The notes under the pieces: model-generated
Databases searched by the model: none
What the model saw: the letters and a program-made list of their open reading frames with translations, nothing else
Told to the model about the DNA's origin: nothing
In this document: one piece after another, positions 24,976-38,610 of the stretch
How the letters are laid out: every line of letters starts with the position of its first letter
Position numbering within the stretch: position 1 is the stretch's first letter
Source: Pirellulales bacterium
GTDB taxonomy: Bacteria > Planctomycetota > Planctomycetia > Pirellulales > PALSA-1355
Length of the DNA: 64,000 nt
Direction of reading: 5' to 3'
NCBI GenBank assembly: GCA_963733035.1
Contig: CAVTBU010000005.1
Span: 1,024,001-1,088,000, forward strand
Made by a program: the position numbers and the translations under genes

Positions 24976-25977
24976 TCAATCCGCCAACGTCATGCCCGTA
25001 CGCTTACGAATTGGGGGCGCAGGGCATTTGCGTAAATAGTCGAGTATCTCGGAGACTTGGGCGGTAGCCAGAGCCAGGCAGCTATCGGCTCCACCGTAGT
25101 ACATGCGGATGGCGCCACTCGTTTTGTCCAGAATCCAACCGCATGGAAAAACCACGCCGTTGACATCCCCCTGGCGTTCGTACGGCATTTCCGGTGCAAA
25201 GATCCATTCGTCACTGCGCCGCAAAACCCGACACGGATCTTCCAGATCGAGCAATGCAAGTCCCAAGCGATAAAGGCAACCACCCGCAGTCACGCGTACA
25301 CCGTGATACAAGATGAGCCAGCCTTCAGGCGTCTCCAAGGGCGGAGGGCTGAGGCCAATTTTGTTGGCATCCCACCATGCCCCACGCCGCGCATGCAACA
25401 GAATGTGGTGATCACCCCAATGCGTAAGATCCGGCGAAAACGAAATCCACATGTGAGCGCCAAGCCCGGCAGACACGGGGCGATGGATCATTGCGTAGCG
25501 GTTGCCGAAGCGGCGGGGAAAGATCGCGGCATCCTTGTCGTCTGGTGGCATGACCGGGCCAAGTCGCGCGAAATGAACAAAATCTTTTGTCGCAGCCAAT
25601 GACACCAGCGGACCGCTGGTTGAATACGCCGTGTAGGCGATGATCCACTCGTTGCGTTCTTCAATCCAGGTTACACGGGGATCCTCAACGCCCCAGGCTT
25701 CTTCGGGAAAGTCAGCGGGGTCGGCTGCGAAACTCGGCCTCGAATCAATTTGCCAGTTGCCAATTCCGTCGTTACTTCGGGCAACGCAAAGATGCGAATG
25801 GCCTCGCCGGTCTTCGACTCGTACCAGTAGAATCGTTTCGTCGCCCGACTGACATGCGCCGGCATTAAAAATCGAATGCGCTGGATAAGGCCAATCGTGG
25901 GCCGTGAGGATTGGGTTCGTGGAATTGCGATGGAACAGGTCAACGTGCAAATTGGCGACCGTCGATTCTCGACGCAT
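24976..25977 (-). CDS. GH130-family glycoside phosphorylase/hydrolase (beta-mannoside)
   Basis: NPIL, FNAGA, GVEDPRV, DKDAAIFP, YHGV, VVFPCG, YYGGAD motifs. Confidence 0.9.
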   Translation of the reverse strand: MRRESTVANLHVDLFHRNSTNPILTAHDWPYPAHSIFNAGACQSGDETILLVRVEDRRGHSHLCVARSNDGIGNWQIDSRPSFAADPADFPEEAWGVEDPRVTWIEERNEWIIAYTAYSTSGPLVSLAATKDFVHFARLGPVMPPDDKDAAIFPRRFGNRYAMIHRPVSAGLGAHMWISFSPDLTHWGDHHILLHARRGAWWDANKIGLSPPPLETPEGWLILYHGVRVTAGGCLYRLGLALLDLEDPCRVLRRSDEWIFAPEMPYERQGDVNGVVFPCGWILDKTSGAIRMYYGGADSCLALATAQVSEILDYLRKCPAPPIRKRTGMTLAD

Positions 25978-26021
25978 GCATTTTTCCTTTTGGGCGGTTT
26001 CTCAGGCTTGGTTCACGGAAC

Positions 26022-27098
26022 TTATCCGTTCCCGACGGCAGCTTGCGGGCTACCATCTAGGACGCGCTGAAGATTGCAGTTGTGGACTTCGGTCCACAAG
26101 TAAGCGAGTGTCGATTCGGCACCTTGGTTTCGGTTGATGCCCGACGCGTGCAGACCATCGCAACAGGCTCCCCGGGGAGCATCGACCAGAGGCTTTCGCA
26201 AGCTATTCTGGCCGTGGAACCAGCCATGTGCGCGGCGAAAGGTGGACAAGTACTTCTCTTCTCGTTGGCGTCCGAAAGCGGTTAGCGCCGCTTCGGCCAT
26301 CGTGGACGCCTCGACCGGCTGTTGATCGTGCAAGGCTTTGCTTTGCTTAGGGGCGTGCCATCCCCCATTGCCAATTGGCCAAAACACGCCTTCGGCTGTT
26401 GTTTCGCGGTCGAGGAACGAAAACGCAGCCTCTGCTACGGCAAAAAAGGGCTCCGTTGGCCAGCGTTGGGACGCGGCGAACAGCGCATGCGGTAATACGG
26501 CATTGGCGTAGGTCATGCGAGGCTCGAACCACAACCAGTCCGCTGACCGACATCGCTCGAAGCACTCGACCAGTTGCCGAGCCGCGTACCAAGCAATGTT
26601 TTCCAGTGATGCGGCATCGGCCACTTCGGATCGGCAAAGATGATCCCACGCCAGCACGATATACGCCTGGGCCCGCGGGCTGCGCACGTCGATGAGCGTA
26701 GGCACAAGCGAGCCGATAAGTTCCCGAGCCAACCGCCGATGATCGTCTGGCAATTTACTGCCGAGTACTTCGGCTAACGCAAGGACGGCTTGTCCTTGGC
26801 AGTCGTCGCAGCCTTTTGCGTCCAGCCAACTACGTTGATAACTGAGGTAATTATGAAAGCCTCCGTCGGCACACTGCGCAAATTGCAAGAATCCCAGATA
26901 ACGTGTCACGCGTTCAAGCATTCTTGGGTCGGGGCGTTCCGAGCACAATTGAGCACAAAGCCGCAAAGCGCGGGCGTTATCGTCGGTCGTATAGCCGCTC
27001 TCGCGCCGCGGAATGCTGTAGATCGCATGCTGAATCAAGCCAGTCGAGTCCGTCATGCGGTCCAAATGATCCAGAACGACCGGATTGTGACGATGCAC
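26022..27098 (-). CDS. Six-hairpin (alpha/alpha)6-type protein usually fused to GT4 glycosyltransferases
   Basis: HL.RMTD.TGLIQHA, GYTTDDNARAL, WFE..MTY.NA, DQQPVEA, NQGAESTLA; GTG start overlaps the upstream stop. Confidence 0.85.
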   Translation of the reverse strand: MHRHNPVVLDHLDRMTDSTGLIQHAIYSIPRRESGYTTDDNARALRLCAQLCSERPDPRMLERVTRYLGFLQFAQCADGGFHNYLSYQRSWLDAKGCDDCQGQAVLALAEVLGSKLPDDHRRLARELIGSLVPTLIDVRSPRAQAYIVLAWDHLCRSEVADAASLENIAWYAARQLVECFERCRSADWLWFEPRMTYANAVLPHALFAASQRWPTEPFFAVAEAAFSFLDRETTAEGVFWPIGNGGWHAPKQSKALHDQQPVEASTMAEAALTAFGRQREEKYLSTFRRAHGWFHGQNSLRKPLVDAPRGACCDGLHASGINRNQGAESTLAYLWTEVHNCNLQRVLDGSPQAAVGNG

Positions 27099-28333
27099 TA
27101 CAAGCCCCTTTGCAAAGATCGTTCATAGGGTTTCAGCTCACTCGACGCGGCGACGATCTTCCGATGGAGTCGCGTGATGTTGGCCCGTCGGGTCGATACG
27201 ATTCGGCCGAAGAGCTTTAAATACTTGTGTCCCACATTGTTCCAATGCATCGGACGGGAATACTCGTAGGCCCTGCGACGCGTCTCGAATTGAAACTTGC
27301 TATCGCCAAGGAATCGCAGTGCCGCATCGGCGAGGCCATCGCTCTGTTCAAATGGCGTTAGCAGGCCCCGACCGTCGGCCAGGACTTCTTGAGCATACAG
27401 ATAGGGAGTGCTGACGACTGCCAGCCCCGCCGACAGGGCATACGCCAATGTGCCGCTGGCAATCTGATCTTTTCCGGGATACGGAGTAACGTAGACATCG
27501 CAGGCTTGCAAGTATGCCAGCAGATCGGCCAAGCAAAGAAACTGATTTACGAAACGTACATGTTCGCCCACGCCCAGGCTTTGGGCCATGGCCGCCAGAC
27601 TTTCGCGATAGACCTCGCCCTCCTGACGTTTGACCAGCGGATGAGTGGCGCCGACGATCAGATATATCGCGTCTGGGTAGGCGGCCACGATGCGGGGCAT
27701 GGCTTGGATCATGTACTCCAGGCCCTTTCCTCGATTGATGAGGCCGAACGTGCAGATGACACGCTTCCCCGCCAACCCAATCCGCGCCTTGTGCAATTCA
27801 TCGCGATCAAAGGGAACTTCCGGCACGCCATGGGGAATCACCCGAATTCGGCGACTAGAGACGGCGTACACGCTGCGCAAGAGTTTCGCGGCAATCTCTG
27901 TCATGACCACCAAGCCCTGACTGTGCGCGGCGATCCGCTGGATCACGCGGCGCGGTAGCGGAGCGGGTTCGGTCATCAACGTATGAAAGGTCGTTACGAT
28001 GGGCTTGTGACATGCTTGTACGAACTGCAGTACGTCCTTTCCCCACTCGCCCGGGTAAAGTCCGAACTCATGTTGCAGGCTTACTACGTCGCAAGGGCCG
28101 TCGTTGGCCATTTCGGCAGCTATTCGGTAGGCGCCTCGCCGCGAGTTCTCTATGACGTGCACCACGCGAGGATCGTGCAGTTGAACCGGCCCCATCTTGC
28201 GGATCGCCGCGACCGACGAAATGTCGGAACCGGCTGCCAGGTCCACAGCGTCAGCCGAATCCCTGGTAAACGTGGCCAGCCCGCATTCCTCTGGCGGGTA
28301 GGTCGAAACAAACAGCGGTCGGACGATTTCCAT
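27098..28333 (-). CDS. GT4-family glycosyltransferase
   Basis: STYPP..CGLATF, QHEFGLY, IPHGVP, GKGLE, DVYVTPY, SGTLAYA, STPY motifs. Confidence 0.93.
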
Positions 28334-28336
28334 CAG

Positions 28337-28540
28337 TCACCTTCGGTTATTGGTTCCGTGTGTCGAGAATCCTGTGAAGACTTCATCGAGCCCTTGCCGT
28401 CTTTTTTTGCAGTCGCGGCCATCGCCCTCGGTGACGCGTGGCCGGCGCTCCTTTTCCCCACTGCCGTCCGAAGGGAACAGCAATCCGTGCCAAACGCCGA
28501 CGACGACCACAGCAACCGCGAGCACCAGCAGCACTTCCAT
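28337..28540 (-). CDS. Small membrane-anchored protein (tentative)
   Basis: 67 aa, N-terminal hydrophobic helix, ends 3 nt before the GT4 start. Confidence 0.45.
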   Translation of the reverse strand: MEVLLVLAVAVVVVGVWHGLLFPSDGSGEKERRPRVTEGDGRDCKKRRQGLDEVFTGFSTHGTNNRR

Positions 28541-28627
28541 AAATGCGCCTGTCGTGGTTGGCCGAGTTTTCTTGAGCGAGCGGTACAGAGAAACTCCCCT
28601 CGGGCACGCCGCCGAGCGTGGCCGCTC

Positions 28628-28774
28628 TTAGGTCAGTCGGCGACCTTGAAACACGTTAACGAGCAGCACCACAAGCGCGACTACTAGCAGAGCGTGAATG
28701 AGTCCGCCCCCAACTCCGAAGCCGAACCCCAAGGCCCACAACAGCAGTACGATTAACAAGACGGTCCACAACAT
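28628..28774 (-). CDS. 48-aa lmo0937/DUF5670-like small membrane protein
   Basis: Below the ORF-track cutoff; hand translation MLWTVLLIVLLLWALGFGFGVGGGLIHALLVVALVVLLVNVFQGRRLT; GAGGTG RBS. Confidence 0.85.
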   Translation of the reverse strand: MLWTVLLIVLLLWALGFGFGVGGGLIHALLVVALVVLLVNVFQGRRLT

Positions 28775-28880
28775 ACGTCACCTCAGCGTGTAAAATTTCT
28801 CATTCGATCAAGCAAATATGGTCTGTGGGGAGACATGGCGATGCGCTCCGGCAGCACTCTGTCCGCCTCTAATTTTTCGC

Positions 28881-29156
28881 TTAAGATGGCATGATCATCT
28901 CAATGGAGTTAGTCCCAGCATCGCCGCCATGCGTCACCGATGCGGCCGCATCGTGATTCAACGGATTCAATTGGCCGCCGTTGTGAATTCGTTCCCAGAC
29001 CTCCAGGCGATGGACCGGAATGTCGGGATCAACGTCGAATCCCAGTTTCACCTTCTCGCCGCGAATCTCGAGCACGGTAACTTTCAGCATGCGCTGAACG
29101 CCGTCGGCGCCTCCAACCACGACCGACTCCTTGTTCCTTCTCGTCAGCACTAGCAT
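28881..29156 (-). CDS. csrA: Carbon storage regulator CsrA-family RNA-binding protein
   Basis: MLVLTRR..ESVVVG...KVTVLEIRG.KVKLG...IPVHR.EV; GAAGG RBS. Confidence 0.92.
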   Translation of the reverse strand: MLVLTRRNKESVVVGGADGVQRMLKVTVLEIRGEKVKLGFDVDPDIPVHRLEVWERIHNGGQLNPLNHDAAASVTHGGDAGTNSIEMIMPS

Positions 29157-29179
29157 CGTCGCACCTTCCTTTCTCATGC

Positions 29180-29593
29180 CTACCTCTGCGTTCCATTTCC
29201 GCTCCAGGTTCCGGCAGTCACACTGTCGGTGAGCAGGAACACTTGAACCACCGTTCCGGTAGTAAACGCCTTCACGACGGTACCCGACGTCGGTGCGATC
29301 TCGACCCCCGATTCACGCACGTTTACCCCAGTGATTCGCTTGATTTCGTCCCGCAGCGAGTCGGCAGAGTTGTCGAACAGCTGACGGTGAAACTTCTGCA
29401 CCTGGACGGCTCCTTCCGGGGTCTTGGCCAATGCCTGCTCCGCCGGTGACAACGCCCCTTGGAGCGTGATGACCAGCGTATTCTCACTGAACACGACAGT
29501 TACCGACTGGGGCATGATGCCAGTCCGTCGGCGCTCGAAATCACTGGCTGCCAAGGCGACTTCCTTCGCCATCGCCGAACTGGAATTATCCAT
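29180..29593 (-). CDS. DUF2294 (MpsC-like) family protein, divergent paralog
   Basis: FE...TG..P.SV.V.....LVITL.GALSPAE..L...PEG...V..F.RQL...L...I..ITGV.V pattern; AAAGGAG RBS. Confidence 0.85.
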   Translation of the reverse strand: MDNSSSAMAKEVALAASDFERRRTGIMPQSVTVVFSENTLVITLQGALSPAEQALAKTPEGAVQVQKFHRQLFDNSADSLRDEIKRITGVNVRESGVEIAPTSGTVVKAFTTGTVVQVFLLTDSVTAGTWSGNGTQR

Positions 29594-29631
29594 TGGGTCG
29601 CTCCTTTCAGTTGTGCCCGCGGCAAGCAACC

Positions 29632-29741
29632 GAAACAAAAAAAGCCGACGTGGTGAAACACCCATAGGTGTCCCAACACGTCGGCTTACTCGTTAACGAG
29701 CCGCCCGGCATCGCCGGGCTGCCCTTTAGTTAGTCGTCCGA
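29632..29741 (-). promoter_or_regulatory. Leader RNA / transcription attenuator, copy 1
   Basis: 110-nt element repeated at 30872-30981; GGGC-A-GCCC..GGGC-G-GCUC hairpin, then terminator AAGCCGACGUG..CACGUCGGCUUUUUUU. Confidence 0.8.
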
Positions 29742-29793
29742 TAAACTCAAGAATACGCGGAACCGAATCAGAATGGCCTTCACGAACACCTTA

Positions 29794-29825
29794 ATCATAG
29801 TGTTTGTACCCTAGAAAGCAAACGA
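29794..29825 (-). promoter_or_regulatory. Promoter of leader copy 1
   Basis: TCGTTTGCTTTC box containing TTGCTT, then N16-TATGAT; same box before copy 2. Confidence 0.6.
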
Positions 29826-29865
29826 GAGCCTGTTCCGCCTGCATTTCCGCCCGGAAGGATTTCCA

Positions 29866-30054
29866 TTAGTCCTCCTTGATCGACTTGTCCATGGCCTTGA
29901 GGCATTTGTCGCACATTGGTCCGAGTGATTCTGCTACCACCACTAGCGTTTCTGGAAGCGCGCCATGATGGTGCAGCAGATGCTTGAGTCGTGGAAGCCA
30001 CTGTGTAGCCTCCTGGCCAATCATCAAGGACCGGCAGGTTTTGCAAATTTGCAT
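29866..30054 (-). CDS. Small CxxC...CxxC protein
   Basis: 62 aa with CKTC and CDKC; in series with neighbouring genes. Confidence 0.5.
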   Translation of the reverse strand: MQICKTCRSLMIGQEATQWLPRLKHLLHHHGALPETLVVVAESLGPMCDKCLKAMDKSIKED

Positions 30055-30072
30055 ACGATCAACAGCTTTTTT

Positions 30073-30306
30073 CTAGGTCGCCAACTGATCGCGAGCTCGG
30101 CCCTGACGGTCGAAACGGGTGCCGCACTTGGGGCAAGTCCAATCGCCCAGAACGAGTTCCGCGGATTGGTTGGACAAGCGAATCACGGGGAGTCCGCCGC
30201 CGCACTCACGGCAAGTCTTCCGACCCATCCCTGTCGAAAAAAAGGCGATCAGCGCAAACCCAACAAACACGGCCAGCGTTATGGTCCCAATCAAAAGAAT
30301 TTGCAT
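30073..30306 (-). CDS. Small membrane-anchored zinc-ribbon protein
   Basis: TM helix then CREC...WTCPKCGTRFD; abuts the upstream stop codon. Confidence 0.7.
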   Translation of the reverse strand: MQILLIGTITLAVFVGFALIAFFSTGMGRKTCRECGGGLPVIRLSNQSAELVLGDWTCPKCGTRFDRQGRARDQLAT

Positions 30307-30828
30307 CTACAGACTCCCGGGCAATTCGGTCCTAGTTTCAAGCAATGGTTGTCGGTGGGAAGTGGCTTCATCGGTAACGACGCTTAAGCGCGACGTTCTC
30401 AAATAGGGAGCGTCGTCGAGAGCGAATTCCACCGCAACGCTCCGCTCCAATTGATCGAATCGACGATTTGTCAGCGCTGACGCATCAAAGAAGACGTCGC
30501 CGGCGGGCGTTCGAATATAGCCGTATCCCACGGTGTTGTGGCTGGGAACCAAATGCGTCGACGGAACATCCGTCCCGCAGGAAAGGAATTTCAGTTGACT
30601 AATCACACCCCGCACCAACCCCGGCGGCTGAGGACGGGAAGTCTGAGCGAGAGTCGCAGGTGTTACTACTCGAATTCCATTTCTTTTGTCGCCGATCAAT
30701 TCGTTTTCCATTCCAGCCTGTCCATACGATTCGCATTGCCCGCCATCGTCACACCAACGATCCTTTGCGGACGCTTCGGAGCCAAGCAACGAATTCTGAC
30801 TGCTCGACGGCGTGTTGATAGATTTCAT
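30307..30828 (-). CDS. Cold-shock-domain-like protein with N-terminal extension
   Basis: RGVI...GYGYI..PAGDVFFD.SAL....FDQL.....VEF resembles the CSD RNP1/RNP2 fold; start set at ATG 30828, downstream of the attenuator. Confidence 0.65.
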   Translation of the reverse strand: MKSINTPSSSQNSLLGSEASAKDRWCDDGGQCESYGQAGMENELIGDKRNGIRVVTPATLAQTSRPQPPGLVRGVISQLKFLSCGTDVPSTHLVPSHNTVGYGYIRTPAGDVFFDASALTNRRFDQLERSVAVEFALDDAPYLRTSRLSVVTDEATSHRQPLLETRTELPGSL

Positions 30829-30871
30829 GACGCATACCACCAAAGGATCACGCCGGTTCCCAATTTGACGA

Positions 30872-30981
30872 GAAACAAAAAAGCCGACGCGGTGGTATAC
30901 CCCGAGGTACATCACCGCGTCGGCTTACTCGTCAACGGGCCGCCCGCTGGCAACTGGGCTGCCCTTCAGTTAGTCATCCGA
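30872..30981 (-). promoter_or_regulatory. Leader RNA / transcription attenuator, copy 2
   Basis: Paralog of 29632-29741 with compensatory changes in the terminator stem. Confidence 0.8.
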
Positions 30982-31040
30982 CGATTCAAAAACCCGCTGC
31001 GGCCAGATCGGAACTGATTATCCGCGCTAGCTCACCCCTA

Positions 31041-31072
31041 AGTTTAACCTTCCCATGGTGGAAAGCAAACGA
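31041..31072 (-). promoter_or_regulatory. Promoter of leader copy 2
   Basis: TCGTTTGCTTTC box containing TTGCTT, then N16-TAAACT. Confidence 0.6.
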
Positions 31073-31219
31073 CTGCCATCTTGACATCACCTATTTGGCT
31101 GGCATACAGCTTTTCGCCCGCGAGACTGCCAGTGCCTGTTTTCGAGAACAATTTAGAGTTAGAATCGGACAGGCATTCCGGACGAGCCGTCGCCCACGCA
31201 ATGTATCTGTTGAATCACA

Positions 31220-31600
31220 ATGAAAAGTCAAGGAGAAATTGAAGCAGCGATCTGCGCGGGACTGAATCGCTTTGAACAAGAATACATGGGGCGAGGGCCG
31301 AAGCAGATTCACGCACACCTGATTGGCGATTGCCTGATCATTCGGCTGCACGGTGTTTTGACCGCGGCCGAAAAACAATTGGTGAAGACCTTGCCGGCGG
31401 AGAAAGGAAGGGATTTGCTCAAGCAAGTTCGAACACATCTCATCGAAACCGCACGGCCGGTCATGGAGGCGATGGTCGAGGAAGTGACGGGCGTAAAGGT
31501 CGTGAGCTTGCACCACGACATCAGCACGACGACTGCCGAGGAAGTGGTGCTCTTCACGCTGGCGACTGCGCCTGCTTTCCGCGAAACGCGAAAAAAATAG
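31220..31600 (+). CDS. DUF2294 (MpsC-like) family protein, canonical
   Basis: MKSQGEIEAAI...FEQEYMGRGP...L.GVLTAAEKQL...GRDLLKQVR...VTGVKV.SLHHDIST...EEV..FTL. Confidence 0.92.
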   Translation: MKSQGEIEAAICAGLNRFEQEYMGRGPKQIHAHLIGDCLIIRLHGVLTAAEKQLVKTLPAEKGRDLLKQVRTHLIETARPVMEAMVEEVTGVKVVSLHHDISTTTAEEVVLFTLATAPAFRETRKK

Positions 31601-31620
31601 CTCATTGCCAACGAGCGTAC

Positions 31621-32166
31621 TCAATTGCCAGAGTTGCTCGATTCTTGAGCGCGAAACTGGCCGAGACGCTCCGCCTCGGCCGCTCGCAATTCCGCATGGA
31701 CACGTTGGCAATGGACGTTCGCATGCGTCAGACGGTAGTCCAGCCACTCCTTGTCGACGCTCAGGAACCGCCCCATCGCCTGTTCGCGGTCCATCCAATC
31801 TTGCAGGTAGTTGCGGCGGATCTCCGAGAGATCGGCCAACAACACTTGAACGCTCAAGGTATCCGCGTAGTCAGGATAGAACGTAGCTTGCAACCTACGA
31901 CGAAATGCAAGCAGCGCTTCGGCGTCGGTAATCTGCTCGTCCGCCAAATGCAGATACATTTTGTCATGCAAACTATGCTGCTCTGGCGCCGGATCCGCCT
32001 TAGCCTGCGGCAACAAGCTGCGCTGCAAATCGAGCATTTCGGTGTAAAGCAGTGAACGCTTGCGGATGGCGGCCTGGTCTGCATCTGGTCCGGCGCGGAT
32101 AGATTGCACTTCGGCGTAAATCTCGGTGAGTCGGTTTGTGGCTCCGTTACGTTCGGTTGAGTTCAT
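31621..32166 (-). CDS. Hypothetical helical protein
   Basis: 181-aa ORF with AGGGGG RBS; no recognised motif. Confidence 0.6.
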   Translation of the reverse strand: MNSTERNGATNRLTEIYAEVQSIRAGPDADQAAIRKRSLLYTEMLDLQRSLLPQAKADPAPEQHSLHDKMYLHLADEQITDAEALLAFRRRLQATFYPDYADTLSVQVLLADLSEIRRNYLQDWMDREQAMGRFLSVDKEWLDYRLTHANVHCQRVHAELRAAEAERLGQFRAQESSNSGN

Positions 32167-32507
32167 AGCTCAGAACCCCCTAATATGAAGTAAGTGATGT
32201 TCCCTCTATGGTAATAGTAGGCCGACGCCGCGATTTGAACACCACCCGACTGCCGCGATTTGCCAAAAGGCCTGCCTTCCGGCAGCCATTGGGCCGGTGT
32301 GACTGAGAGCGCCACAACCCCACGGTTCCGGTTGTTCCGCTTCACGTGTGCTTGTCGCGCCGCTCCATGCGCCACAAACGCGGATTCAGTTCAAATGTGA
32401 CCTTCCCGTTTAACAGGCGAAATGCGCGCAAGGCCTGCCACGCCAAGGACAAGTCGCAACGAGACTGTACGACCGATCGTAGGCAATCTGTTTGAAGCGG
32501 CCGGCTG

Positions 32508-33506
32508 CTAATAGCTCCAGCCGGACTTGAGGCCGAGCATCACGTTTTGCGAGTTGGGCTGGTTGACGTAGTAGTAGGTGCCGCCGCCTTGGTAGTCCAG
32601 TACTCGGGCCGAGCGCGACCAGGCCATGACTTCGCTGTAGGCGCTCACAAACCAGCGCGGACCGCGGTATCCGAGTTCGATCTGGCCGGTCAGGTTGGGA
32701 CGGGGAAACAGCGTGACGTCGTCGTCGGCAATGTGCTCGCGGGTGAACGCCGTGAGTCCGATTCGCGCCCGCCAGTACGGCTCCCAATTCGTATTCATCT
32801 TGCGGCGCGACTCGGCACCCACGTAGGGGTAGAACGTCCACCAGGATTCTTGATATCCGACGGCGACCACGGTGGGTGCCAAGAAGATATCCGGAATGCT
32901 GCGGACGAAGAACCGGGTGCCGACGCCGCCGAAAAAGCTCAGCCGCTCCCAGTTTTCGGGTTCGAACATCAATTCGTATTCGGCGCGCAGCCCGAGGTAG
33001 TTGGTTACATTCGAACCGTCGTAACCACCGAGATCGGCGGAGTAGTCAACTTTGGCGCCGAAAAGTTCGGCGCGGTAGCGTTGCCGGCCGTGGCGCTGTT
33101 GCCAGCCCAGCGTCGGCGCCGCGCCGTTGTTTTGCATGAAGGTGCGATGGTCGACCTGTTCGCCCCAATAGAAATAGTCGATCCGCGTATACCAGGTCGA
33201 TTCGAACAGCCGTGGCGCGTCGCCGCTGACCGGCACGCGCGGCGTGGCGGGGACGTAATCCTCGACCGTGAGGAATTCTTCATAAGCGGCGGGCGAGACA
33301 TCGGTCGACGATTCAGGTGCCGCTTCGATCGGTTTGGCCGGCTCGCCACTCTCAGATCCCACGGGGCTCGCGGGCGGCAGCCGCTCGCTCTTTGCATTCG
33401 GCGCCGCGGCTTGCGAAACCGGATCGGTCATAGGGTCCGCGACGGCGCAGGCCAAGTGCGCGCCGGCAATGAGCACACCGGTCAGGAGCAAACGAAGGAC
33501 GTTCAT
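32508..33506 (-). CDS. Putative outer-membrane beta-barrel protein
   Basis: Signal peptide, low-complexity linker, alternating aromatic beta-strands, C-terminal GLKSGWSY. Confidence 0.75.
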   Translation of the reverse strand: MNVLRLLLTGVLIAGAHLACAVADPMTDPVSQAAAPNAKSERLPPASPVGSESGEPAKPIEAAPESSTDVSPAAYEEFLTVEDYVPATPRVPVSGDAPRLFESTWYTRIDYFYWGEQVDHRTFMQNNGAAPTLGWQQRHGRQRYRAELFGAKVDYSADLGGYDGSNVTNYLGLRAEYELMFEPENWERLSFFGGVGTRFFVRSIPDIFLAPTVVAVGYQESWWTFYPYVGAESRRKMNTNWEPYWRARIGLTAFTREHIADDDVTLFPRPNLTGQIELGYRGPRWFVSAYSEVMAWSRSARVLDYQGGGTYYYVNQPNSQNVMLGLKSGWSY

Positions 33507-33776
33507 AGAGCGCGCAATGCGACGGAGTTTTAAAAGACATGCCTACGCGCCCGCCTGCGAGGGGGGAACAGTAGCCCATGCGGCGACTGTAGGTCAAGTT
33601 CAACCCCGAGCAGGTAGCTCGCACGGCCAGGCATGGCAAACGGCCAGTGACGAACTGGACTTTAGCGACGCCGGTTTGCCGCGTATTGGGTAGCCAGCTG
33701 CTCGTGGGATCGCGTAACGGCCCCCCTTTCGCGGCCCAAATGCTAGGCTTTCCGAGGGTGGTCATCACGAAGGAGA

Positions 33777-34061
33777 TTGGCAATGCGGTGCATCGTCGGC
33801 GTGGTCCTGTTCGGGGTCCTGTACTTCGGCAGTTGCGCTCTGCTCGGCGAAATCGTCCGTGCGCGGGCAGTGACAAACCATCCGCTGCATTCGCAGAAGG
33901 TAGGAACAAAAACTCGGGCACGGGTGTTGAAAAAATACCACGCGCTGGTCGCCGTTGGCGCCGGAGTCGTCACGATCGTCGGCTGCAGCCTGCCCTCGGT
34001 GTTGCTCAGGATGAGCGAGCGAAGCGAGTGGCGGCAGTACAAGGAATGGCAGCGAGGTTGA
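33777..34061 (+). CDS. Small two-TM membrane protein
   Basis: AAGGAG RBS; two hydrophobic segments. Confidence 0.6.
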   Translation: MAMRCIVGVVLFGVLYFGSCALLGEIVRARAVTNHPLHSQKVGTKTRARVLKKYHALVAVGAGVVTIVGCSLPSVLLRMSERSEWRQYKEWQRG

Positions 34062-34112
34062 GCGTTACCCGTCACTTGTTTTTTCGCGGGTCCTGGTTTG
34101 AAAGGCGAACCA

Positions 34113-34664
34113 ATGGTTGAAGCCATCATCAAATGGGTGCTGAGCAACTATCCGATCACCTTTTTCTTCGTGGGATTGTTGTGCGCATTTGTCTCGCTCG
34201 CCAGACGTCATGGCGAACTGACAAGAGAGGCTGTGTTCGAAGCGCTGCTGGCTTACTACTGCCTGTTCGCCGTCGGGTGCTTCTACGTCTACAACTTCGT
34301 GATGCACGTATTCTTTGGCGAGGTGGCCGCCAGGTTCATTGGCTGGGAGGACAGCCCATTCCAATTGGAGGTGGGATTTGCGAGCCTTGGTTTTGGCGTG
34401 GTGGGCCTGCTGGCATTTCGCCAGGATTTTAGCTTACGGCTGGCCGCGATCACCGGTCCGGCCTTCTTTCTGTGGGGTGCCGCCGGCGGGCATATTTACC
34501 AAATGATCGCGCATCATAATTACGCGCCCGGCAACGCCGGAGCCATGCTGTGGGTGGATCTCTTGTTTCCGGTGATTGGGTATGCGCTGCTCTTTGGCTG
34601 GCGAAAGGCAAGCGGGAAGTCCTCGAACCGTCGAGCAGCCGGAATGGAAGCGGCCAGAGGTTAA
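34113..34664 (+). CDS. Multi-pass membrane protein (DUF6790-like)
   Basis: H.FF....A..IGW..SPFQ.EVGFASLG, WGAA.GH, NYAPGNAG motifs. Confidence 0.8.
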   Translation: MVEAIIKWVLSNYPITFFFVGLLCAFVSLARRHGELTREAVFEALLAYYCLFAVGCFYVYNFVMHVFFGEVAARFIGWEDSPFQLEVGFASLGFGVVGLLAFRQDFSLRLAAITGPAFFLWGAAGGHIYQMIAHHNYAPGNAGAMLWVDLLFPVIGYALLFGWRKASGKSSNRRAAGMEAARG

Positions 34665-34686: not shown

Positions 34687-35270
34687 CTAGCGGCGATTGA
34701 ATCGGCGAGCGAAGCAACTGCCCAGCAGTATCAGCGCGCACGTTAAGAGCGCAAGTGTCGACGGTTCGGGCACGACTTCGACAACACCCCAGCGGCCGGA
34801 ACCGGAATTGTAGCTATTGCCGTCTCGGTCGTTCCACATCAACCCGTTGAACGCGGGCGACTCGATGTGAACATAGTCCTCCAATTCCGATGCGCTATTG
34901 GGTTCGCCGGGCGCCCAGTTCGTATAGGTCACCGGTTCGCCTGAGACCCAAACAAACGTGCCCTCGACGGCCGCGTCGTTCAGTCCGATCCACAAACCGC
35001 GATTGACGCCCCCGAGATTCGCGAACGTGGCAAAGACCCAAATGTTTTCGGCCGCGTCATTGATGGTTGCCAGATTTCCGCCGAGCGTGACCGCCTCGGC
35101 CTGGGAGGCAAACCAGGTGTCTTTCTCCAGCAGGTAATAGCTGTGGCCGTTGGCTGGATTGACGACGGGTCCATCAATGACCGTTGCCTGGCGCAACTCG
35201 AACACCAGCCGAAAGCAGCCGTCAACACCAGCCAGCGATAGCCGACATTCGATCGAGGCACAATTATCAT
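34687..35270 (-). CDS. C-type lectin domain PEP-CTERM protein (probable frameshift near 35190)
   Basis: NGHSYY, LATIND.AEN, WIGLND..EG.F.W.SGEP..YTNW..GEPN, WND, VPEPSTL+TM+RR; a signal-like N-terminus lies in another frame from ATG 35270. Confidence 0.85.
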
Positions 35271-35490
35271 GGCTCGACGCCCTAGTTCCAAGATGGGGTT
35301 TCGGCGACCATTTCCAGGCTAAGCGAGCGCACCAGAAATAACAACTTCGGGCCAACTTACATGGAGTAACATTTCGACGACGAACTCCACCTGATAGCTT
35401 TTAACCTAGGCGACACGGCTGCCGGAGGCGCCAGCGGCCGTCGCCTTTGCTGACAGTGCTTCGACCGAGATTCCAAATAAGGGGCCAACC

Positions 35491-36644: not shown

Positions 36645-38318
36645 TCAACCGTACGTCGTAACGCCCGCAATTGCGGAGCGGCGACGTCCTTTCCGCCGGG
36701 CGACGGCCACGAACGCCACGAAAGCCGTCAGCATCAGCAGGGCGCTAGTCGGTTCCGGCACGGCCACAAGGTCCGAAACAAAGATCCCGCTCGTCCCATC
36801 GGTGAAGACAGCCCGAAAGGCCAATTGGCCGCGCTCGCTGAACGCGGCTCCGCGGCCGTCACCCAAACCCGACCTGCCGAAAAGCGACAATTCTGCAATT
36901 GTCCGATTGTCACCCGGCGCCACTTCCAACTGATTTCCCTCGCGGGCGATGAGCCGGAGCACGCCGAACGCGTCTTGGGCAAAGATCGCCTGGTCGTTTG
37001 TACTGTCGACTCCATCGCCGCGCAGGTTGGCTGCGAAGGCCGTTTGCCCATTCGCATTGAAATACAGCGAATTGAAAGTGCCGTCGAACACGACGACGTT
37101 CGCGGTGTCAGGGATCTGTGCGCCCTCACGCGCCACGAGTTCGAGGGCTCCAAATCCATCGGACCAGATTCCGCTGTCGTTTGTCGAATCCACGCTAGCG
37201 CCCATCAGGCTGGCCTCGAATGCGATCTTGCTTGCGGAGTTGAGTTCCGGTGGTTCGAAGTCGAGGAAATTGACGTCCATCAATGTGCCAGGCGCATGGT
37301 CACCGGTGCGAACGACGAGTTGGAGCGAGCCGGAACCCTCGGACCAAATCCCATAGTCGTTGGGGGAACCTGAATTTCGGAGCTTCGCCGCAAATGCGAT
37401 CTGATCGGCGGCGTTTATCTCAGAGGTGTATTTGCCAAACGCCAGGTTGTCGAAGCGCACACCGCTCGGCAGCCCCGGCGCCTGATCACCTTCCCGGACG
37501 ATCAATTCCAAGCTTCCGGAGCGATTTGTCCAAAAGCCCTTGTCGTTGTTGAAGTCGATTCCCGGACCAGCGAGCGTCCCCAGGAACACGCTGTGGCCGG
37601 CGGAGTTGATTGGACTGTCTCCTGTTCCGAAGAATCTCACCGAGTCTGGTAATCCCGGCGCGTGGTCACCGTCTTGTTGAACCACGCTCAAGACCCCGGA
37701 ACCTTCCGACCAGAGCGCGGCGTCATTCACCGTGGTAATTCCCGGGCCTTTGACAAACGCACCAAAGGTCATTTGGCCCGCGGTATTGAAATGTGACAAG
37801 CCGAGACTTTGGTAGTTGACACCGTCCGGCAGTCCAACTGCCTGACTCCCCTGCCGCGCCACAAGGTGGAGCGCGCCGGGCGCACCTGACCAAATGCCGA
37901 AATTGTTTGTCGCCGTGACGCCATCACCTGTCAGTTTCATACGAAAGGCGACGTTCCCATCCGAACTGAACAGAACATCCAGACCGCCGAAAAAGTAGAA
38001 GTCATCAAACCGCACGTCGTTCGCGATGCCGGGAGCATGTTGTCCCTCCTGCGCGGCCAATTCCAGCGTTCCCGAGCTCCCTGTCCAAACTCCGGCGTCG
38101 TTGGTCCCATCGATTCCCGGCCCGATCAGACTCGAAGAGAAGGCCACATTGCCAGCAAGATTGATAGCGGGCGATCGCACTTCATCAAACAGGACTCCAT
38201 CGGGAGTCCCTGCGCACTGCTGGCCCGTGAGTGCAATCGTGCGCACGGGTTGCGCCGCCGCCGCGCCACCAAACAGGAGAACGACATAGCCTGCCAGAGC
38301 GAACTGAGCGAGTCTCAT
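36645..38318 (-). CDS. PEP-CTERM protein with tandem NxxGxxAF repeats
   Basis: Repeated IN..G.VAF...GPG....ND.G.W..GSG.L.LV.R.G..APG units; VPEPTSALL+TM+RRKGRRR; start ATG 38318. Confidence 0.9.
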   Translation of the reverse strand: MRLAQFALAGYVVLLFGGAAAAQPVRTIALTGQQCAGTPDGVLFDEVRSPAINLAGNVAFSSSLIGPGIDGTNDAGVWTGSSGTLELAAQEGQHAPGIANDVRFDDFYFFGGLDVLFSSDGNVAFRMKLTGDGVTATNNFGIWSGAPGALHLVARQGSQAVGLPDGVNYQSLGLSHFNTAGQMTFGAFVKGPGITTVNDAALWSEGSGVLSVVQQDGDHAPGLPDSVRFFGTGDSPINSAGHSVFLGTLAGPGIDFNNDKGFWTNRSGSLELIVREGDQAPGLPSGVRFDNLAFGKYTSEINAADQIAFAAKLRNSGSPNDYGIWSEGSGSLQLVVRTGDHAPGTLMDVNFLDFEPPELNSASKIAFEASLMGASVDSTNDSGIWSDGFGALELVAREGAQIPDTANVVVFDGTFNSLYFNANGQTAFAANLRGDGVDSTNDQAIFAQDAFGVLRLIAREGNQLEVAPGDNRTIAELSLFGRSGLGDGRGAAFSERGQLAFRAVFTDGTSGIFVSDLVAVPEPTSALLMLTAFVAFVAVARRKGRRRSAIAGVTTYG

Positions 38319-38610
38319 CAGTAACAAAACCTTCAGGTGGCGATAAAAAAACTCCGCTTGGCCGACACACCTCGACCGCCAGAAAAGTCCGGCAGCGTCT
38401 GATCGAGATATGCGGCAAAGCGGAGTTATCAGTAGCGCGTCAAAGGGGGAGCGAGAGCGCCCCGAGTCAAAGGATTTCCAGTTGTGGTCTACCTGGCACA
38501 CTCCCTACCCGAGTAGGGGGCAAGGAGGATCGTATCTAGTAGCATGCGGAATTGCAAGTATTTTTTTGGAACGTGCAAAGTTCCACACTAAATTGAGAAA
38601 AACAAATGGC

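Follow-up and report, generated by a model that had tools for sequence, protein, structure and literature searches.

A conserved leader RNA overlapping an intrinsic terminator, present twice in a Pirellulales genome: a candidate antitermination switch upstream of stress-type genes in Planctomycetota

Our analysis of a 64,000-nucleotide (nt) stretch of DNA from a Pirellulales bacterium (the window; leader coordinates are window positions on the minus strand) identified two copies of a leader RNA that belongs to a large and apparently undescribed family of the Planctomycetota. Each copy is about 107 nt long and consists of a conserved irregular hairpin, here called the rod, followed by an intrinsic terminator (Table 1). 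The repeat is a conserved leader RNA and more than a product of chance, and the same element was found in many other genomes at 44-80 bits. Its attenuator architecture very probably serves conditional antitermination, in which a stabilised rod base lets transcription pass into the genes behind it. Our reading of the effector is more tentative: with a probability of roughly 40% we favour a small molecule or ion that is sensed directly by the RNA, which would make the leader a new riboswitch class with predicted ligand binding.

A sequence-only reading of the window had proposed two minus-strand copies of such a leader, and both were located as claimed when the sequence was read directly, with every checked detail being correct. 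The copies align near base-for-base over UCGGAYGACUAACURAAGGGCAGCCC, a variable tip and GGGCGGCYCGUURACGAGUAAGCCGAC, and downstream of this shared block each copy continues with a long hairpin and then a run of 6-7 U. The pairwise alignment also upheld the statement that the terminator interior diverges between the copies with its pairing kept. From the base upward, the rod is composed of P1 (UCGG/CCGA), a 3x3 loop (AYG/AAG), P2 (ACU/AGU), a second loop with the 3-base-pair (bp) helix P2a, P3 (GGGC/GCYC, with GCUC in copy 1) and P4 with the variable tip. The full elements fold at -60.0 kcal/mol (copy 1, z -6.3) and -62.6 kcal/mol (copy 2, z -5.7), values equalled by 0 of 200 shuffles. Taken alone, the 5′ 68 nt of copy 1 form the P1-P2-P3-P4 rod at -30.0 kcal/mol (z -3.3, 0/200 shuffles equal), and the 5′ part of copy 2 forms the same rod at -29.5 kcal/mol (z -2.8, 3/200 shuffles equal). 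The strand GCCGAC is used both as the 3′ half of P1 and as the start of the terminator 5′ arm, so that the rod base and the terminator are mutually exclusive; folding agrees with the earlier proposal that pairing of UCGG/CCGA and ACU/AGU blocks the terminator base. A leader peptide, AUG ACU AAC UGA, can be read in copy 2 and was rejected as not conserved, copy 1 having ACG and the family AYG or AAG.

During transcript elongation the rod, with P1 paired, remains the most favourable fold until about 100 nt have been made, and the terminator wins after the last 5-7 nt of its 3′ arm. In the full element, enforcing P1 and P2 yields a best fold that is less stable than the terminator conformer by 11.7 kcal/mol (copy 1) and 12.9 kcal/mol (copy 2). 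Since the rod comes first and the terminator is the more stable structure later, we infer default termination with effector-dependent readthrough as the natural reading. In such a mechanism, RNA polymerase would start at a promoter-like site 50-57 nt upstream of the rod and would transcribe the rod first, with its near-invariant lower part made of P1 (GUCGG/CCGAC), the 3x3 purine loop AYG/AAG, P2 (ACU/AGU) and the second loop. The 19-bp terminator would follow and would have to take the GCCGAC strand from P1. Without effector the terminator should prevail, and transcription would stop about 45 nt before the start codon. An effector that locks the rod base would cost the terminator the 6-7 pairs at its foot, beside the U tract, so that polymerase could read through into the stress genes. 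A search of the read archive for RNA-seq support matched five runs from two studies, all of them DNA and with small shares.

The family was searched with R1, a covariance model built from the two window copies. R1 matched 20 of 33 genomes from the family of the window's organism (E<=0.01), with up to 19 matches in one genome when both strands are counted, 52 of 151 genomes and 20 of 30 families in an even sample of its order (E<=1e-4), and 4 of 150 other genomes of the phylum (E<=1e-6). The search of Planctomycetota that the sequence-only reading had suggested has thus yielded a large family, and in the window's own genome it returned no copies beyond the two. An exact two-anchor pattern, which picks up near-consensus copies only, occurred in at least 132 stretches of a species-representative genome collection of all prokaryotes and in at least 132 of a metagenome collection. 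Among the 80 genome-collection matches listed, 78 came from records labelled Planctomycetota and two from a single contig of a metagenome-assembled genome labelled 'delta proteobacterium'. None of these 80 near-consensus matches carried a Bacillota label, Bacillota being the second group in which the sequence-only reading had suggested a search.

The scan of the whole window with the covariance models of Rfam 15 at gathering thresholds gave no match, the DUF1646-motif Na+ and nhaA-I Li+ families included, in line with the earlier remark that the element is of no known riboswitch class. A permissive scan (E<=10, positions 29400-31300) listed nine weak rows, all far below gathering and none from a riboswitch family; the best was mir-8303 with 28.5 bits against a cut-off of 90, and the top rows were microRNA models lying on the terminator hairpin. 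In the open literature (Creative Commons articles of PubMed Central (PMC), and bioRxiv) we found no description of the leader family and no paper joining DUF2294 with a riboswitch or MpsC, the DUF2294 protein, with CsrA; a single, unrelated DUF2294 paper was returned. The sole planctomycete cis-regulatory candidate found in print there was the Rhodopirellula-1 motif (Weinberg et al. 2010, PMC2864571). According to that article, it is a candidate from Planctomycetes without an Rfam accession in the article's table, has the consensus AACnA..GAU..GAAC..GUUAUC..GUU with a long variable insert, and was flagged as overlapping a transposase-related motif. An identity with our leader was ruled out, as sequence and structure differ when compared by eye with the published alignment. 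The YjbJ motif (Narunsky et al. 2024, PMC11109978) is a Streptococcus motif and unrelated to the planctomycete leader. With nothing alike in Rfam 15 or the searched literature, the family is apparently undescribed; the type of device itself is well known.

For the comparative analysis, 68 distinct forward-strand members were taken from 50 loci, and the 66 with enough flanking sequence were aligned (alignment A5, to which column numbers refer). In the inner rod (P2a/P3/P4), 11 of 13 helix pairs show changes on both sides, for example columns 24-52 with 29 A-U and 28 G-C pairs, and 13 pairs of the terminator stem do likewise. None of 500 column shuffles attained the observed value for either structure on any of five measures, and pairing fell from 91-93% to below 50% in rod and terminator when partner columns were slid by 1-3 positions. 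A T run is present within 50 nt in 66 of the 68 members, and the terminator 3′ arm CGYYGGY with its T run was found in 129 of 132 genome and 115 of 125 metagenome exact-pattern matches, among the matches listed. Two characteristics of riboswitch-type RNAs were therefore observed, namely a structured 5′ leader domain with covarying helices (P2a/P3/P4) and a platform exclusive with the sensor helix, given by the shared GCCGAC, the terminator in nearly all members and its covarying stem. In addition, two complete rod and terminator units stand in series before one gene at locus L056 (3348-3413 and 3219-3286, minus strand), with the first unit's terminator directly upstream of the second rod; similarly placed pairs of matches occur elsewhere, such as G094:C1:1492321-1492388 and 1492503-1492570.

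The lower rod behaves differently from the inner rod in this alignment. P1 and P2 are nearly invariant, and A13, C14, A61, G62 and U63 never change. The 11 variant cells at the P1 pairs 6-70, 7-69, 8-68 and 9-67 comprise seven wobbles and four mispairs. The changes A70G and C71U are compensated in the terminator (two cells each) and are wobble-compatible with U6 and G5 of P1 (UG three times, GU twice), a pattern that would fit both P1 and the terminator being kept, if the same members carry both changes. Because P1 and P2 hardly vary, covariation neither supports nor refutes them; it supports the inner rod and the terminator. The invariance of P1 is explained by the triple constraint on GCCGAC, and that of P2 and of the loop purines points to direct recognition by some partner.

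Upstream of both window copies we noted promoter-like boxes, ending 50 nt (copy 1) and 57 nt (copy 2) before the hairpin, and the start codons lie about 43 nt (29593, copy 1) and 48 nt (30828, copy 2) past the U tract; the spacings of about 50 nt and 40 nt given by the sequence-only reading therefore hold. In the family, a TTGC-N18-21-TAnRnT box pair is found in 34 of 66 upstream regions, compared to 1.4 expected from shuffles; its end lies about 11 nt upstream of the rod in 6 cases and 42-70 nt upstream in 27. As the box pair can come as near as about 11 nt to the rod, the variable 5′ hairpin of longer leaders is dispensable. A generic scanner for sigma-70 promoter and terminator consensus lists neither the promoter nor the terminator of either copy; the boxes fit about 7 of 12 positions of the E. 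coli consensus, and the terminator stems hold a mismatch. In 38 cases with a Pfam-confirmed gene on the leader's strand, the strand searched, the median distance from the U tract to the gene start is 42 nt.

Pfam domains were searched in 136 candidate open reading frames (ORFs) behind the 68 members; the loci had been picked from best matches and clusters, and the tally is therefore no unbiased sample. The first Pfam-supported gene encoded MpsC in 15 of 68 cases, a BON domain protein in three, the same GT4 glycosyltransferase as in the window in three (preceded by a leader copy of its own in L012, L021 and L026), and CsbD, PDZ and DUF2934 proteins in two each. The 11 single cases were CsrA, DUF3309, YflT, an S30AE hibernation factor, phosphoketolase, glucose-6-phosphate dehydrogenase (G6PD), Host_attach/baeRF12, a response regulator, fasciclin, an ice-binding-like protein and GH94. 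No supported family followed in 30 of 68 cases, two of which had a sub-threshold match only. Judged by these families, the downstream set looks like general-stress genes. The sequence-only reading had tied the leader to DUF2294 genes, and this tie stands as a linkage, since 44 of 52 motif-positive but only 11 of 99 motif-negative genomes of the order encode MpsC; it does not stand as a specific one, the set being broad and of stress type.

Our preferred reading, in which the RNA itself senses a small molecule or ion, is suggested by the aptamer-plus-platform design, the conserved loop nucleotides, the units in series and the copies before diverse genes. Furthermore, no protein always accompanies the leader, MpsC being absent from 8 of the 52 motif-positive genomes and the CsrA paralogue of the window (module CsrA) having close orthologues in 25 of the 52. 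A stress-related signal would explain both the many copies per genome and the diversity of the gene set. Several points weigh against this reading. A plain rod with invariant helices and with neither junction nor pseudoknot also has the look of a protein-binding site, and the switch helix rests on conservation and energy rules, as P1 and P2 show no compensatory covariation. A pure riboswitch would also leave unexplained the tight, position-specific linkage to two types of MpsC: the leader stands head-to-head with type 1 in 37 of 46 cases, and the gene most often found behind it is that of type 2. Finally, the gene set yields no candidate ligand, and the genomes without MpsC are draft assemblies in 190 to 1020 contigs.

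The closest alternative, which we hold to be nearly as likely, keeps the same terminator/antiterminator design and has the rod base read by a protein, which might be MpsC, the CsrA paralogue or a protein that is not encoded nearby. The near invariance of P1, P2 and the purine loops is compatible with such a partner, and the regulon is as broad as expected for a regulator protein. In its leading version, which we still consider unlikely, the head-to-head type 1 MpsC would be a small ligand-sensing protein that binds the invariant rod base and gates antitermination, much like HutP, PyrR or LicT, and the leader-controlled operon of mpsC (type 2) and csrA would form a feedback loop. It is supported by gene linkage: over the 151 order genomes, motif and MpsC occur together in 44, the motif without MpsC in 8, MpsC without the motif in 11 and neither in 88. 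The motif-positive genomes contain 46 type-1-like mpsC genes (>=113 bits), of which 37 have a leader in head-to-head arrangement no more than 1.4 kb away (140-700 nt for most), one lies behind a leader, and eight are without a nearby leader or on another contig. These counts and positions were obtained by manual cross-reading of genome tables, and as related genomes are not independent, they show linkage and not dependence.

The exceptions argue against MpsC as the reader of the rod. Among the eight motif-positive genomes without MpsC, three have weak leader matches only (E above 1e-5), but five have strong ones, and in one of these (G024, 96% complete, 460 contigs) a contig of 18 kb has two leaders, which precede the GT4 cluster and a small-protein operon, with MpsC found neither on this contig nor elsewhere in the assembly. 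Conversely, at eight loci from the 11 genomes with MpsC and no leader, no diverged leader near mpsC scored above 9 bits with filters off. At these loci the type-1-like mpsC lies beside genes for LysR-type regulators in three of eight and for beta-carbonic anhydrases in three of eight (L197, L198, L199, L202, L203), which fits a link of DUF2294 to inorganic-carbon, ion or pH sensing.

The structure of MpsC gives little indication of RNA binding either. The confident AlphaFold model (46-row alignment; predicted local distance difference test (pLDDT) 92, predicted template modelling score (pTM) 0.84) shows a helix, two strands, two helices and two strands. Comparison with PDB sequences by phmmer gave no match at E<=1, and Foldseek none at E<=0.001, its best partial matches being TRAPP Bet3/TPC6 and YslB (probability 0.92-0.94, template modelling score 0.43) and also H-NOX. 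In a wide search independent of Foldseek the best Z was 6.8, which is at noise level, with TRAPP, V4R, YslB and the phenol-sensor domains of PoxR/DmpR at Z 4.4-5.7 among unrelated folds. Three of 46 MpsC members have a weak Pfam match to HK-GC-Chemotax_sensor (best E 0.014), and DUF2294 probably belongs to an H-NOX/V4R-like Pfam clan. Nothing in these searches thus points to a known RNA-binding fold, and their noise-level leaning towards the sensor folds of Bet3, V4R, YslB and H-NOX is a faint hint at a small-molecule sensor, to be taken as a lead only. Type 1 MpsC (alignment A6) has a conserved HHDIST.TGEE segment that type 2 lacks and that may form a metal or ligand site.

Less likely still is a version in which the protein is a CsrA paralogue bound to the invariant GGA of UCGGAYGA, or another protein. 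CsrA was detected by Pfam in all 151 order genomes, with 2-17 hits each and 14 in the window's genome; co-occurrence with the CsrA family is therefore uninformative, and the expansion points to what may be many specialised paralogues. Close orthologues of the module CsrA are nearly confined to motif-positive genomes (25 of 26 among the 151), but are found in these 25 of the 52 motif-positive genomes only. The module CsrA keeps the MLVLTRR and VHR segments, which we take to be the RNA-binding parts of CsrA. A predicted complex of two copies of module CsrA with MpsC type 2 scored 0.01 against a mark of 0.32 and counts neither way. Many members have CGA, AGA or UGA in place of the GGA of the terminator arm, and with this second GGA not conserved the RNA is no typical multi-GGA target of CsrA.

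We hold it improbable that the short terminated transcript is itself the product, i.e. a multi-copy trans-acting small RNA such as a CsrA or MpsC decoy, with readthrough being incidental. The own promoter-like site, the strong terminator, the up to 19 matches per genome and the many CsrA paralogues would suit such a role. However, members lie at a median of 42 nt before same-strand genes and at orthologous positions (before mpsC-csrA and before GT4), the single invariant GGA is located in a stem and internal loop rather than in a hairpin loop, and this genome has only two copies. Little credit is also given to an attenuator that is constitutive or physically tuned, by temperature or transcription speed, with no specific effector. 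The terminator is far more stable than the alternative fold, and cold-shock-like and ice-binding-like proteins occur in the gene set, both in keeping with this view; nucleotides in loops or otherwise unpaired, outside both helices, are nevertheless conserved phylum-wide (e.g. A61 G62 U63 A64 and G66), which argues for specific recognition. Two alike copies 1.2 kb apart, and clusters of copies in some genomes, might raise the suspicion of a repeat, a mobile sequence or the chance duplication of an ordinary terminator, but this is very improbable given the structure-preserving covariation, the fixed orientation before genes on the strand searched, the excess of upstream boxes over shuffles and the orthologous positions over 20 of 30 sampled families.

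Table 1. Features of the two leader copies and of the genes around them (window positions).
Feature	Position	Strand	Evidence
Copy 1, whole element	29743-29637	-	
Copy 1, promoter-like boxes	29821-29794 (TTGCTT 29821-29816, N16, TATGAT 29799-29794)	-	read from sequence; putative function
Copy 1, conserved rod hairpin	29743-29676	-	model R1, 94.4 bits; fold; family covariation in P2a/P3/P4
Copy 1, intrinsic terminator	hairpin 29685-29644, U7 29643-29637	-	sequence, fold, stem covariation in family
mpsC type 2 (DUF2294, 137 amino acids (aa)), first gene after copy 1	29593-29180	-	Pfam PF10057, E 7e-20
Module CsrA paralogue, 91 aa from MLVLTRR	29156-28881	-	Pfam PF02599, E 1.4e-14
Very hydrophobic ORF, 48 aa	28628-28774	-	
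GT4 glycosyltransferase	27098-28333	-	Pfam
358-aa protein without Pfam family	26022-27098	-	ORF, Pfam scan
GH130 phosphorylase	24976-25977	-	Pfam
Copy 2, whole element	30983-30877	-	
Copy 2, promoter-like boxes	31068-31041 (TTGCTT 31068-31063, N16, TAAACT 31046-31041)	-	read from sequence; putative function
Copy 2, conserved rod hairpin	30983-30915	-	model R1, 94.6 bits; fold
Copy 2, intrinsic terminator	hairpin 30924-30883, U6 30882-30877	-	sequence, fold
173-aa protein, weak cold-shock-like C-terminal part, first gene after copy 2	30307-30828	-	Pfam CSD, E 0.001, below family cut-off
77-aa membrane and zinc-ribbon protein, copy 2 operon	30073-30306	-	ORF, Pfam scan
62-aa Cys-rich protein, copy 2 operon	29866-30054	-	ORF, Pfam scan
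mpsC type 1 (DUF2294, 126 aa), head-to-head with copy 2, not behind a leader	31220-31600	+	Pfam PF10057, E 3e-36
Proteins with PEP-CTERM-like tails	34687-35355 and 36645-38501	-	translations

In the window, the mpsC (type 2) and csrA genes behind copy 1 are followed by small hydrophobic ORFs. Between csrA and the GT4 gene lies a very hydrophobic ORF of 48 aa (MLWTVLLIVLLLWALGF...) that by eye resembles small stress membrane proteins. The GT4 gene starts about 550 nt past csrA and forms a cluster with the genes for the 358-aa protein and the GH130 phosphorylase on the same strand as copy 1, and their co-transcription with copy 1 is putative. The same gene order recurs in G024 with ORFs of equal lengths, and the cluster may encode a stress-induced sugar or compatible-solute pathway. 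A third, degenerate leader copy was looked for before the window's GT4 gene and was not found.

The operon behind copy 2 encodes the 173-aa protein, similar proteins to which follow the leader in other genomes, and a pair of a membrane zinc-ribbon and a Cys-rich protein that is also found behind the leader in L011, L013, L016 and L021. This conserved operon of small genes contains a W(R/C)DDGG motif and a cold-shock-like segment, GYGYIRTP..DVFFD, which are fused in the window and encoded by separate genes elsewhere. Its other products are a zinc-ribbon (CxxC...CxxC) membrane protein and a Cys-rich protein of 62-64 aa starting with MQ(I/L)CK(T/A/S)C, and none of the operon's products has a Pfam family above the cut-off. 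Elsewhere, the DUF2294 domain presumably accompanies the MpsAB/DabAB system. The sequence-only reading had suggested looking for the leader before mpsAB/dabAB, SulP and carbonic anhydrase genes, and none of these adjoins either copy in the annotated region (24976-34664). Two further proteins encoded in the window have hydrophobic tails of the VPEPS... type that resemble PEP-CTERM sorting signals.

To our knowledge, gene regulation in Planctomycetota has been little studied, and the leader, of which there are at least several hundred copies, is a marker of a stress-type gene set in this phylum. If it is a riboswitch, it would represent an orphan class of considerable size that probably responds to a stress signal or an ion, and finding this ligand would give access to stress physiology across the phylum. 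Should MpsC be the reader instead, this would be the first molecular function for DUF2294, an uncharacterised domain also present in Firmicutes, and gating by MpsC would amount to a new class of RNA-binding antiterminator and to the main stress regulon switch of Planctomycetota. The leader model offers a simple route for annotating stress genes in planctomycete genomes, and the promoter-leader unit, being compact, might serve as an inducible expression part in planctomycetes, which are hard to engineer.

The leader shares features with several known systems. CsrA-sequestering RNAs of the CsrB/RsmZ type carry many GGA motifs in hairpin loops. Our leader resembles them in that CsrA paralogues are encoded in leader-controlled operons and that UCGGAYGA includes one invariant GGA, but it was rejected as an RNA of this type, its one conserved GGA (columns 8-10) being located in P1 and internal loop 1. 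With c-di-GMP-I (GEMM-I) and other second-messenger riboswitches it has in common the many copies before diverse genes, which suggest a signal rather than a pathway metabolite. It differs from c-di-GMP-I in having no structural likeness or Rfam match and no observed link to cyclase or phosphodiesterase genes.

Proteins are known to cause antitermination at hairpins that overlap a terminator, e.g. BglG, SacY and LicT on the ribonucleic antiterminator (RAT) of about 30 nt, PyrR and HutP. As in these systems, the terminator 5′ arm is overlapped by an irregular hairpin whose internal loops are conserved, there are several targets per genome, and a candidate regulator is encoded beside or inside the leader-controlled operons. 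Unlike these systems, MpsC resembles none of the folds of their proteins, the rod has about 68 nt compared to about 30 nt of RAT, and the RNA occurs without MpsC in some genomes.

Transcriptional ON riboswitches in which P1 competes against an intrinsic terminator include the adenine riboswitch of pbuE and the guanidine-I riboswitch. Further examples are the DUF1646-motif riboswitch for Na+ (PMC9337991) and the nhaA-I riboswitches for Li+ (PMC9646797). Our leader differs from all of these in having no Rfam match, in its plain rod, in its near-invariant lower helices and in its fixed linkage to two types of MpsC. In common with them, it has a conserved aptamer-like fold in the 5′ leader and a basal helix whose 3′ strand is the terminator 5′ arm. 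The units in series are a further likeness to ON riboswitches, and the leader would also share with them default termination with effector-dependent readthrough.

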